Positions 46,441-47,391 of a DNA stretch of 64,000 bases are shown here, piece after piece; the stretch's first letter is position 1, and every line of letters starts with the position of its first letter. The stretch is from Clostridia bacterium. Lineage in GTDB: Bacteria; Bacillota; Clostridia; Christensenellales; UMGS416. A model generated the notes under the pieces. It was not told where the DNA came from. It saw nothing but the letters and a program-made list of their open reading frames with translations, and searched no databases. Location: positions 1,147 to 65,146 of the forward strand of contig DAOWFX010000123.1 of the NCBI GenBank assembly GCA_030637745.1, written 5' to 3'. The position numbers were made by a program, and so were the translations under genes.

Positions 46441-46776
46441 GTCCGCAATCGGTACTCCAGCGTTTTCTTCGGGTGTAGCGATGTTGTATTAATCTTTAGA
46501 CAATCCCGAGACAATGTCGCAAGCCCAAGTTGTCTGCAACTCTGTTTAATCCAGGCACAAGCCAGAGCATCAAGTGCCTAGTGCCTCACATAATTTGACG
46601 CCCTCTTAAGCTATGCGAGCCTCGCAAAAGATGGACGGCTGACCGCTATTAAGCAGCAGCTAAAGCTAAATTATCGTTGTTAGCTATTAAGTTTACCCGT
46701 GGATTAACGTGGGAACAGGAGAACCACGACCCGCTTACAAAGGTCCCCCGACAACGTCGAAAGCCGGTACGCCCCC
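46413..46776 (-). ncRNA. ssrA: tmRNA (transfer-messenger RNA)
   Basis: The minus strand reads GGGGGCGTACCGGCTTTCGAC...GGGGTTCGATTCCCCTCGCCTCCACCA, with a tRNA-Ala-like acceptor/T-arm. The internal tag frame GCT AAC AAC GAT AAT TTA GCT TTA GCT GCT GCT TAA TAG encodes ANNDNLALAAA. It lies downstream of smpB. Confidence 0.93.
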
Positions 46777-46786
46777 AGAATGGTTA

Positions 46787-47391
46787 CATGCACTGCTATT
46801 CAGTGCACAAATAATATATAATGCGGTCACATATGTTTAATATGCTCCCTTTTACAGATTATTTCTACCCTGCCTACTAGCACATCTAACCATTCTGTTT
46901 TGAATGCTTATGTTGCATGCACTGCTATTCAGTGCACAAATAATATATAATGCGGTCACATATGTTTAATATGCTCCCTTTTACAGATTATTTCTATCCT
47001 GCCTACTAGCACATCTAACCATTCTGTTTTGATGGTCATATTGCATGCACTGCCATTCAGTGCAAAATTCATAAATAACTCGGTCACATATGTTGGATAT
47101 GTTTCCTTTTATTTGTCAATTTTACTCTGCCTATCGGCACATCTAACCATTCTGATTCAGATGTTTATGTTATATGCACTGTTATCCAGTGCAAAAGCTA
47201 TATAGAACACAGTCACTTAAAAAGTATTTCCTTTAGGAAATGCTCGGGTAGCCTAGTTATGGACAATAGCTTGTGGTTACGATAGAAATAATCTAAGATT
47301 ATTGACCAACGTTCCTATGCACACTCTGTATATCGGCACATCTAACCATTCTGATTCAAATGTTTACGCTACATGCACTGCCTCCCAGTGC
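46787..47391. repeat. tandem array of about 129-bp non-coding units between smpB and ssrA
   Basis: Units start at 46787, 46916, 47044, 47173 and 47372 (partial). The invariant stem GCACTG-N5-CAGTGC occurs five times and the invariant box GCACATCTAACCATTCTG four times. Confidence 0.9.

Follow-up and report, generated by a model that had tools for sequence, protein, structure and literature searches.

tmRNA and SmpB act jointly in ribosome rescue; to our knowledge, little has been established on what keeps the amounts of the two in step when a single transcript encodes both. Long stems processed by RNase III are found in rRNA precursors, in the R sites of phage T7 early mRNAs and in the B. subtilis scRNA precursor. 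REP/BIME palindromes are intercistronic elements that block 3' exonucleases, REPs being about 35 nt long and dispersed in hundreds of copies. In the secG-leuU transcript of E. coli, RNase P cleavage leaves secG with an unstructured tail of 14 nt, and the message is lost to exonucleolytic decay with a half-life of <30 s (PMC2241853). In MALAT1/mascRNA and MEN-beta, RNase P makes the 3' end, which is then protected by an adjacent structure (PMC8457004). In polycistronic pre-tRNAs, stem-loops in the leader slow or order RNase P cleavage, the effect being about 10-fold or more near the site (PMC10731613).

The locus described here lies in a window of 64,000 nucleotides, which is the whole stretch of DNA that was analysed. 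An 11-mer at the 5' end of its tmRNA supplies the 3' strand of the helix at the base of a conserved, ~122-nt sense-strand RNA hairpin that fills the smpB-ssrA spacer in a small uncultured clade of Clostridia. The arrangement resembles that of E. coli secG-leuU (and metT), where a protein gene and then a tRNA-like RNA are carried on one transcript, where a single RNase P cut matures the RNA at its 5' end and gives the mRNA its 3' end, and where a terminator follows the tRNA-like gene (PMC2241853). It differs in that the spacer is occupied by a 122-nt hairpin with pairing up to position -1, next to which we infer RNase P cleavage. MALAT1/mascRNA is similar in that RNase P, by cutting ahead of a tRNA-like element, creates the 3' end of the preceding RNA, with the protecting structure directly upstream of the cut. 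However, that system is eukaryotic and nuclear, and its protector is a U-rich/A-rich triple helix rather than a long hairpin; having no homology to the hairpin described here, it is an analogy only. As in RNase III processing stems, a long imperfect double-stranded stem, of a length sufficient for RNase III, stands beside a stable RNA in what would be a polycistronic precursor. In rRNA precursors, however, the 5' flank pairs with the 3' flank around the mature RNA, whereas here the hairpin lies wholly 5' of the tmRNA and its cleavage is hypothetical. The stem-loops of pre-tRNA leaders are short and lie a few nucleotides from the cleavage site, whereas the present stem, with ~46 bp, directly abuts the site and forms a separate conserved family. 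Finally, REP/BIME elements are likewise palindromic, sometimes tandem, and located 3' of a coding region, where they stabilise the upstream mRNA; in contrast to REPs, the unit here is 122 nt long and was found solely at smpB-ssrA in the sequences searched.

Organization of the smpB-ssrA locus

Features are on the minus strand unless stated otherwise. The tmRNA gene, ssrA (46413..46776), was predicted by ARAGORN, with the tag peptide ANNDNLALAAA, and belongs to Rfam family RF00023 (157 bits against a threshold of 47, E 1e-63). In its acceptor stem, GGGGGCG is paired with CGCCUCC, a G3·U pair included. Since the tmRNA 5' end is at 46776 on the minus strand, C46776 of the plus strand is the complement of G+1. 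The smpB gene (47448..47909; 153 aa, PF01668) lies upstream of an array of hairpin units and on the same strand as the array. Immediately 3' of the tmRNA CCA there is an intrinsic terminator (46384..46411), consisting of a 12-bp stem and then a T run. It is the only predicted terminator-like site downstream of smpB on this strand, none being predicted between smpB and ssrA. The hairpin unit does not itself have the make-up of a Rho-independent terminator, as the sequence that follows it is GGGGGCG, the start of the tmRNA.

Upstream of smpB, TTGATT-17-TATAAT (47946..47974), promoter-like by consensus match only, is a candidate start of an smpB-array-ssrA transcript. Another promoter-like sequence, TAAACA-17-TATTAT, is located within the proximal hairpin unit, U1 (46811..46839), and repeated in the second, U2 (46940-46968). 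The position of this site is not conserved among relatives.

The proximal hairpin

A preliminary description of this DNA had pointed out that an 11-nt sequence abutting tmRNA nucleotide +1, UAACCAUUCUG (46776..46786), is an exact inverted match to the core of a conserved box, read as CAGAAUGGUUA on the sense strand (46887..46897). The match is real: TAACCATTCTG occurs on the minus strand at 46786-46776, where G46776 is +1, and on the plus strand at 46887, 47016, 47144 and 47343. Chance, which that description already thought unlikely, is rejected by folding and by the ~0.03 exact 11-mer matches expected over the two strands of the 64 kb; allowing at most one mismatch raised the count to seven, against 2.0 expected. 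The box, said to recur in every unit, indeed heads each unit of the array and is unchanged in all four window units.

To call the 11-mer an inverted copy of the box is misleading, however. The two belong to a single hairpin unit, U1, whose basal helix has the box as its 5' strand and the 11-mer as its 3' strand, the last base of the 11-mer being tmRNA G+1. The complementarity to the box extends well past the 11 nt to which it had been confined, a repeat finder returning arms of 46 nt that are 74% complementary. U1 (46777..46897), delimited by folding, covariation and a covariance model, R1 (126 bits), has its 3' end at U-1 of the pre-tmRNA. It folds into an extended imperfect hairpin of ~122 nt with ~46 pairs (MFE -56.5 kcal/mol, z -7.56), and C46897 is also able to pair with G+1. 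The whole of 46897-46776 forms one extended hairpin. In that fold, the GCACUG palindrome is opened and paired with the 5' arm, and so is not the separate enclosed hairpin that had been suggested. U1 is the only unit in the window with a perfect basal helix.

When the 488-nt pre-tmRNA was folded, the U1 hairpin was retained, its helix running to -1 and the acceptor stem starting at +1, and no single-stranded stretch was left at leader positions -1 to -10. The helix is flush with the tmRNA 5' end as proposed, but the full fold places G+1 in the acceptor stem, leaving a helix of 10 bp that ends at U-1. Interrupted only by 1-3-nt loops, the ~46 pairs of the stem are long enough for an RNase III substrate, which takes at least about two turns of RNA duplex.

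The tandem array

Tandem Repeats Finder reported a 129-bp period over 46783-47193, and diverged units continue to ~47398. As assembled, four to five hairpin units stand in tandem in the window. U2 (46898..47026; R1 104 bits; MFE -36.1 sense vs -20.9 antisense) shows one mismatch to U1 in the shared ~112 nt of the alignment and is a recent tandem copy of it; its 3' basal strand, CAACAUAAGCAUUC, results in a G·G mismatch and a 5-nt bulge. U3 (47027..47154; R1 96 bits; MFE -32.5 sense vs -30.6 antisense) is an older copy, 75-79% identical to U1 and U2. In U4 (47155..47353; R1 29 bits), the interior has been replaced or expanded to give a unit of 199 nt with no sense/antisense asymmetry, in which the box and the GCACUG palindrome are retained. 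The array ends in a distal remnant, UUUAGAAGCACUGGGAGGCAGUGC, plus linker (47354..47398), which matches the 5'-arm consensus of the relatives, UUAGAAGYRCUG..AGGCAG. The upstream units have degenerate 3' strands of their own (TAAGCATTC, TGACCATC and TAAACATCTG), and from U1 to U4 the R1 scores fall (126, 104, 96 and 29 bits) while the sense-antisense energy gap goes to zero. These units are progressively decayed tandem duplications of the leader hairpin.

Conservation and covariation in related lineages

Relatives were gathered through SmpB homologues and the contigs encoding them. A homologous hairpin of 121-124 nt was detected in six lineages (L086, L089, L091, L092, L093 and L094; SmpB 78-84% identical), the independent lineages numbering only about five and all coming from metagenome assemblies. 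The hairpin ends at tmRNA +1 in four of the six, at -1 in L093 and at -3 in L092; in L086, the basal helix is largely broken, in its middle. Across the seven orthologous copies, 91.9% of cells were paired, compared with 30-42% in slid-partner controls, and 20 of the 48 pairs had changed on both sides, two of them within the basal helix. None of 500 shuffles reached the observed covariation score, and RNAalifold counted 19 compensatory pairs. One pair of the basal helix is A-U in the window and another is G-C, both being C-G or U·G in relatives, and the U·G at columns 17-111 is invariant in all seven copies. The check proposed in the preliminary description, that related loci should keep the complementarity through compensatory changes, thus had a positive outcome; compensatory base pairs across lineages are the mark of a conserved structured RNA element.

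The strand specificity of such an element was found as well, G·U being tolerated but not A·C, and folding favouring the sense strand. The proximal copies contain 35 G·U pairs against seven A·C mismatches, and in 7/7 lineages the sense strand folds more stably than the antisense strand (e.g. -77.9 vs -40.8 and -44.4 vs -26.7). The excess of G·U over A·C, together with a sense strand that always folds better, indicates a structure in the sense-strand RNA.

The element is wholly absent from the L083/L095 lineage, which is nested in the clade in both NJ trees, and is therefore dispensable. Only 5-6 nt separate the smpB stop from tmRNA +1 in L083, L095 and L101, and in other Clostridia the smpB-ssrA spacer is 1-34 nt long in about half of 39 loci. 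Copy number among the relatives ranges from 0 to 5, as counted in metagenome assemblies, in which tandem units may be mis-assembled. The array is the same in the sole other assembly of the species (GCA_023139005.1), which is 99.98% identical. In the closest relative (SmpB 89%), the contig stops 50 nt past smpB, within a unit-like 5' arm.

Searches for the motif elsewhere

No Rfam 15 family for the hairpin unit was matched over the array, even at E values up to 10, the matches there being noise (e.g. GIR1 with 20 bits vs a gathering score of 100). Outside the smpB-ssrA spacer, R1 retrieved no copy from the 64 kb of the window, nor from loci of the relatives and other Clostridia that total 724 kb. 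A degenerate 57-nt pattern (48 bits) matched a single smpB-ssrA locus in the metagenome collection, located on the contig of L087, and had no match in viral contigs. Within the 64 kb, the 724 kb and the metagenome pattern scan, the motif did not have the distribution of a dispersed palindromic repeat, whether MITE or REP/BIME-like. An 18-mer of the box did match a viral sequence; as this match lies inside a coding region, of a 250-kb contig, with no tmRNA nearby, it was considered a chance match. Neither similar arrays nor R1 matches were found in four Clostridia loci with long spacers (L040, L046, L054 and L024), and a literature search for a leader hairpin or repeats upstream of tmRNA returned nothing relevant.

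Several other readings of U1 were discarded. There are no cassettes nearby, as an integron attC site would have, and no reverse transcriptase nearby that would suggest a retron. A Shine-Dalgarno function of the apical AAAGGAG does not fit, as GGAG is not conserved (AAAUGAAG in L086), and small ORFs are not conserved either.

Possible role of the hairpin

The hairpin most likely shapes both the cutting of the smpB-tmRNA transcript and the survival of the smpB message. We favour, at about an even chance of being correct, an explanation in which smpB and ssrA are co-transcribed and an RNase P cut at +1 leaves a protective, flush hairpin on the smpB mRNA. smpB, the hairpin or hairpins and ssrA would form a single transcription unit ending at the terminator 3' of the tmRNA, because there is no terminator-like site before ssrA, a strong one after the tmRNA, and short spacers in relatives. 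In that transcript, the last base pair of the hairpin would be at -1, against the acceptor stem of the tmRNA. Cleavage by RNase P at G+1 would free the tmRNA, and the same cut would give the smpB mRNA a long terminal stem-loop in which even the final nucleotide is paired. This stem-loop would take the place of a terminator hairpin and shield the message from 3'-to-5' exonucleases. RNase P would probably also cleave more slowly because of this helix. From the sequence, we infer that the genes are co-transcribed, that RNase P cleaves the transcript in this organism and that the hairpin is protective.

Should smpB mRNA be protected, or RNase P gated, by the hairpin, the ratio of SmpB protein to tmRNA would be set by a device both simple and new, and bacteria would offer an example of RNase P defining the 3' end of an mRNA and a neighbouring structure shielding it. 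secG-leuU would then represent the outcome without such a structure, with the mRNA gone within seconds. The related genomes, with 0, 1, 2-3 or 4-5 covariation-supported hairpins located exactly at the RNase P site, form a natural test set. A more far-reaching version can be put forward tentatively. It would be a dedicated pre-tmRNA leader element, through which one RNase P cut both matures the tmRNA and caps the smpB mRNA with a blunt 3' hairpin; by throttling RNase P, the helix would set the SmpB:tmRNA ratio post-transcriptionally, tandem amplification would tune that ratio, and the whole would be a bacterial counterpart of MALAT1/mascRNA.

Some observations go against a protective flush hairpin. 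Its position may have been inherited from one ancestral insertion into a very short spacer and not selected; since all the hairpins are homologous, the flush position counts as one event plus retention. The helix that stops short in L092, the broken basal helix of L086 and the lack of the element in the nested L083/L095 lineage also count against it. Given the promoter-like sites in the unit, some tmRNA may come from transcripts without the full hairpin. The box is invariant even in decayed units, which a pure 3'-cap model leaves unexplained.

Alternative explanations

It is possible, though less likely, that the hairpin serves the tmRNA instead, as an RNase III substrate or an occlusion helix that is cut or melted before RNase P reaches +1. 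This requirement would determine how fast, or in what order, the pre-tmRNA matures. A similar idea is the first reading of the preliminary description, a processing or occlusion helix, which is supported as far as sequence analysis goes by compensatory changes, the G·U excess and the favoured sense fold. The transcripts started upstream that such a helix needs fit the absence of a terminator between smpB and ssrA and the 1-34-nt spacers of Clostridia. The ~46 near-continuous pairs are well above the roughly 20 bp needed by RNase III, there is no single-stranded leader at -1 to -10, and a structured leader by the cleavage site slows RNase P by a factor of about 10 or more (PMC10731613). The covariation, the G·U bias and the conservation of the hairpin fit equally well here and under the protective hairpin. 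However, an RNase III site needs no exact end at -1, and relatives with 5-nt spacers mature their tmRNA without any such element.

A role at the DNA level is unlikely. Here, the ssrA promoter would lie within the palindrome, acting as operator or cruciform, and the array would supply promoters in tandem, which would boost or control the synthesis of tmRNA. Sense-strand promoter-like sites do occur in the units, namely the TAAACA-17-TATTAT of U1 and U2, TTTACG-18-TATAAT in both L094 units, TTTACT-16-TATTAT in L092 and TTTAGA-17-TATAAT in L091. In L098, which is more distant, an inverted repeat surrounds the -10 element of a clean TTGTAT-17-TATAAT, and the TTAGA conserved in the 5' arm could serve as a -35 element. 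Nevertheless, the candidates, each a 9-10/12 match, occupy three different unit positions across lineages, and such matches are common in AT-rich DNA, 2-5 being expected per scanned region. Neither the G·U excess nor the invariant U·G pairs of the lower stem nor the sense-antisense energy gap is expected of a palindrome in double-stranded DNA, and a transcript from an internal promoter would exclude the lower stem.

We consider it improbable that the units are a selfish or neutral palindromic repeat, MITE-like or made by slippage, which was inserted between smpB and ssrA and expanded without function, the match at +1 being a by-product of a tiny ancestral spacer. Terminal inverted repeats with a palindromic body, the copy number of 0 to 5 among relatives, the decay of upstream copies and an apparent clean loss in one lineage would all suit such a repeat. 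However, R1 and the 48-bit pattern retrieved no copy away from smpB-ssrA in the loci, metagenomes and viral contigs searched; moreover, the compensatory changes and conserved wobbles of the proximal copy indicate purifying selection on the fold. Even a merely tolerated repeat would be an uncatalogued RNA motif, and a caution that 'promoter arrays' before stable-RNA genes may be RNA structures.

The preliminary description also proposed an invertible DNA switch, in which the perfect 11-bp inverted repeats would be recombination sites flipping the ~100-bp segment between them. A tyrosine integrase gene does lie 1.1 kb past the tmRNA, but this reading is scarcely credible: unlike in fimS- or hin-type switches, a single orientation is seen at assembly level, the species having it in both of its assemblies and the six related lineages all being in the sense orientation (R1 100-126 bits vs 32-55 antisense), and no dedicated conserved recombinase lies beside the segment, while inverting a near-palindrome changes little and an invertible segment has no reason to co-vary as a helix across its whole interior. 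The integrase belongs to a 5.1-kb island that has 28-bp repeats of the tmRNA 3' end at its borders, and the relatives carry other recombinases, on different islands inserted at that same end of the gene.

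Organization of the smpB-tmRNA spacer

In the window, smpB (47909-47448, minus strand; PF01668) and the tmRNA gene ssrA (46776-46413, minus strand; ARAGORN, and Rfam RF00023 with 157 bits) are separated by a 671-nt spacer on the same strand. Tandem Repeats Finder places an array with a period of 129 bp within it (46783-47193), and units of greater divergence reach ~47398. A promoter-like TTGATT-17-TATAAT lies upstream of smpB (47974-47946, minus strand) and a strong intrinsic terminator is predicted downstream of tmRNA (46411-46384, minus strand), with no terminator-like site predicted in the interval between the genes.

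The 11-mer TAACCATTCTG has four plus-strand occurrences (46887, 47016, 47144 and 47343) and one on the minus strand, 46786-46776, in which G46776 is the first mature tmRNA nucleotide (+1); this is exactly as in the preliminary description and far beyond chance. The complementarity to the conserved box of the array units holds, but not as an isolated 11 nt: the repeat finder returned 46-nt arms, 74% complementary, and the whole of 46897-46776 (122 nt) folds as one extended hairpin (~46 pairs, -56.5 kcal/mol; shuffled mean -30.6 kcal/mol, z = -7.6). The box is therefore the 5′ strand, and the 11-mer the 3′ strand, of a single basal helix in the tmRNA-proximal unit. In the tmRNA sense, each unit starts with the box CAGAAUGGUUAGAUGUGC and closes with a GCACUG-N6-CAGUGC palindrome and a short tail. 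This palindrome had been read as a separate hairpin enclosed by the box pairing; in the unit fold it is opened and paired to the 5′ arm. The pairing ends at +1, as proposed, when the unit is folded alone, but co-folding with all 364 nt of tmRNA retains the hairpin while G+1 goes to the acceptor stem, and the 10-bp leader helix stops at U-1, flush against that stem. The 3′ strands of the upstream units (CAACAUAAGCAUUC, CAAUAUGACCAUC and AUAACAUAAACAUCUG) represent the same element in degenerate form.

Conservation and covariation of the hairpin

Among the matches listed, a GTDB scan contained no SmpB above 62% identity. A protein search led to a small clade of uncultured Clostridia with SmpB 78-89% identical, whose contigs were retrieved; all relatives are metagenome contigs and amount to only about five independent lineages. 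Spacers of 168-310 nt with a hairpin unit are present in L086, L089, L091, L092, L093 and L094 (SmpB 78-84% identical to the window), and in all six the final 121-124 nt before tmRNA form the same extended hairpin from differing sequences. Its 3′ end falls at +1 in four lineages; in L093 it is at -1 and in L092 at -3. The basal helix pairs CAGAAUGGUUA with UAACCAUUCUG in the window, CAGAUUGCUUA with UAAGCAGUCUG in L094, CAGACAGUUUA with UAAGCAGUCUG in L091 and UCAGGCUGUUUA with UAAGCAGACUGA in L093. Two of its positions co-vary, the window alone having A-U and G-C at sites that are C-G or U·G in relatives. The middle helix is GAUGUGCU/AGUGCAUG in the window versus AAAUGUCGCAA/UUGCGGCGUUU in L089 and L091.

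No unit is found in L083-85 and L095-97 (SmpB 86% identical, spacer 5 nt) or in L101 (67%, 6 nt), where an example junction from smpB stop to tmRNA +1 reads TAATATTT|GGGGGCG. Of 39 loci from other Clostridia, about half have spacers of 1-34 nt. Expression of ssrA must often come from transcription reading on from smpB. The unit is also absent from L098-100 (SmpB 71%), whose unrelated 110-nt spacer carries a clean promoter; in L098 (4463-4572) this is TTGTAT-17-TATAAT, with the -10 bracketed by an inverted repeat, CGGGAA...TTCCCG.

Complementarity maintained by compensatory changes at related loci, which the preliminary description had named as a check, was borne out. In an alignment of seven orthologous proximal units with a 48-pair structure, 91.9% of cells are in standard pairs, versus 30-42% after shifting the 3′ partners by 1-3 columns, and in 20 of the 48 pairs both partners have changed. 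The covariation score is 0.403; the shifted controls give 0.06-0.13, and none of 500 shuffles attains the observed value. Adding two window paralogues gave the same picture, and RNAalifold independently counted 19 compensatory pairs. The proximal units contain 35 G·U pairs against 7 A·C mismatches, the U·G at columns 17-111 never varies, most lineages have G·U next to it, and the sense fold is far better than its complement for every spacer (e.g. -197 versus -165, -78 versus -41 and -44 versus -27). These data point to an RNA structure in the tmRNA sense; a double-stranded DNA palindrome would not be asymmetric in this way. The lower stem, where the conserved wobble pairs are located, can form only in transcripts initiated upstream of the unit.

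History and distribution of the array

A covariance model built on the nine-unit alignment scores the units, moving away from tmRNA, at 126 (U1), 104 (U2), 96 (U3) and 29 bits (U4). Their sense and antisense minimum free energies are -49.2 and -27.4 (U1), -36.1 and -20.9 (U2), -32.5 and -30.6 (U3) and -45.2 and -46.3 kcal/mol (U4). U1 and U2 have a single base difference across the ~112 nt they share, U3 has 75-79% identity to both, and the interior of U4 has been replaced. A G-to-C change in the 3′ strand, compensating a window-specific box G, occurs in the proximal unit only; the upstream tails retain the ancestral G (UAAGCAUUC; relatives UAAGCAGUC), leaving a G·G mismatch. Judged from these sequences, the array is the product of successive tandem duplications of a leader hairpin, and scores, fold energies and compensation together identify the copy adjoining tmRNA as the one maintained. 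The U4 region (47193-47330) holds ~70 extra nt with its own small hairpin, AGTATTTCCT/AGGAAATGCT (47223-47244), and a 26-nt stretch of U4 matches the U1 and U2 arms in inverted orientation.

Partial upstream copies also occur in L094, L089, L086 and L093; unit copy number is evidently labile, tandem copy number being itself open to mis-assembly. The contig of the closest relative, L103 (SmpB 89%), stops 50 nt past smpB (1036-1085), within a unit-like 5′ arm that starts just 4 nt beyond the stop codon (TTAGATGTGCTAAAAATCTG...), which suggests repeat-induced assembly failure and hence an array there too. Since the unit-less L083/L095 lineage is nested inside the hairpin clade in both NJ trees (SmpB and tmRNA; short sequences, no support values), loss of the unit is its simplest history.

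The covariance model has no further match in the 64-kb window and none in 92 other loci (724 kb in all). A degenerate 57-nt pattern (48 bits) that fits all nine units had a single metagenome-collection match, the L087 contig, and none among viral contigs. In most other Clostridia the interval between smpB and tmRNA is 1-34 nt, and no such array occurs in the few whose spacer is long. As far as these data reach, the element is rare and locus-specific within the loci and collections searched. The only viral-contig match to the 18-nt box (L082, 1010-1027) was set aside as chance: it falls within a long ORF on a 250-kb contig and has no tmRNA close by. The hairpin belongs to no Rfam family, is not an intrinsic terminator (it has no U tract) and is not a dispersed repeat of REP or MITE type, as no copies lie outside the smpB-tmRNA spacer in the sequence searched. 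In the searchable literature, we found neither a leader hairpin nor a repeat array described at the 5′ side of tmRNA. We place the element among intercistronic or leader RNA hairpins affecting processing or stability.

Possible roles of the hairpin

Comparison across lineages establishes a conserved, co-varying, sense-strand hairpin whose predicted base abuts the RNase P site. smpB and ssrA are probably co-transcribed, because no terminator intervenes, close relatives have 5-nt junctions and the lower stem needs upstream initiation. RNase P cleavage at +1 would then generate the smpB mRNA 3′ end, and a helix paired through the last nucleotide would deny 3′ exonucleases their single-stranded foothold. 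In E. coli secG-leuU, arranged in the same way, the RNase P cut leaves the mRNA with a 14-nt tail that lacks structure, and exonucleases degrade it within 30 s (PMC2241853). Protection of the smpB mRNA 3′ end is the most likely role, at about an even chance once the structural claims are counted in. It would account for the helix being kept flush with +1 and for L093, where two extra nucleotides at the junction are accompanied by a helix lengthened by one U-A pair. Functionally, the nearest parallels are E. coli mRNA-tRNA transcripts separated by RNase P and, by analogy, MALAT1/mascRNA (PMC8457004); structurally, they are RNase III stems and the leader stem-loops of pre-tRNA operons.

Protection leaves one feature unaccounted for. 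The 18-nt box CAGAATGGTTAGATGTGC (sense strand; 46880-46897, 47009-47026, 47137-47154 and 47336-47353) is identical in all four units, even decayed ones, although U3 is ~77% identical to U1/U2, the U4 interior is replaced and the matching 3′ strands have diverged. Gene conversion could explain this invariance, as could alternative long-range pairing of the boxes to the sole perfect 3′ strand, or use of the box as a sequence-specific site for binding or cleavage.

A serious rival, if a rather doubtful one, is that the hairpin gates tmRNA maturation or is first removed by RNase III: the helix leaves no single-stranded leader before tmRNA, and leader structure of this kind is known to slow RNase P ~10-fold or more (PMC10731613). 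Gating or processing of tmRNA could coexist with smpB mRNA protection. A DNA-level promoter palindrome is unlikely; every lineage has promoter-like matches, but these fall at three separate places, and the asymmetry of the hairpin is of RNA type. A neutral or mobile repeat is more improbable still, being hard to reconcile with the compensatory changes and the absence of other copies from the sequence searched. The invertible DNA switch raised in the preliminary description is scarcely credible, as orientation is constant in the window species' two assemblies (perhaps not independent) and in related lineages, neighbouring recombinases are not conserved among relatives, and the segment itself co-varies.

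Genomic islands at the tmRNA 3′ end

The tmRNA 3′ end carries different cargo among relatives: tyrosine integrases in L086, L093 and L094 (the last also with Abi_2 and HicB genes), two large serine recombinases in L091 and a 906-aa Ras/Roc-COR protein in L092. The site is a hot spot of island turnover in this clade. In the window, a 5.1-kb island (41286-46440; GC 0.284 versus 0.361 elsewhere) is integrated there between exact 28-bp direct repeats (46413-46440 and 41286-41313). It encodes a tyrosine integrase (44140-45288, plus strand), an HTH_17 Xis-like ORF (43946-44137, plus strand), a 380-aa ORF (42807-43949) and a 194-aa ORF (45677-46261, minus strand).
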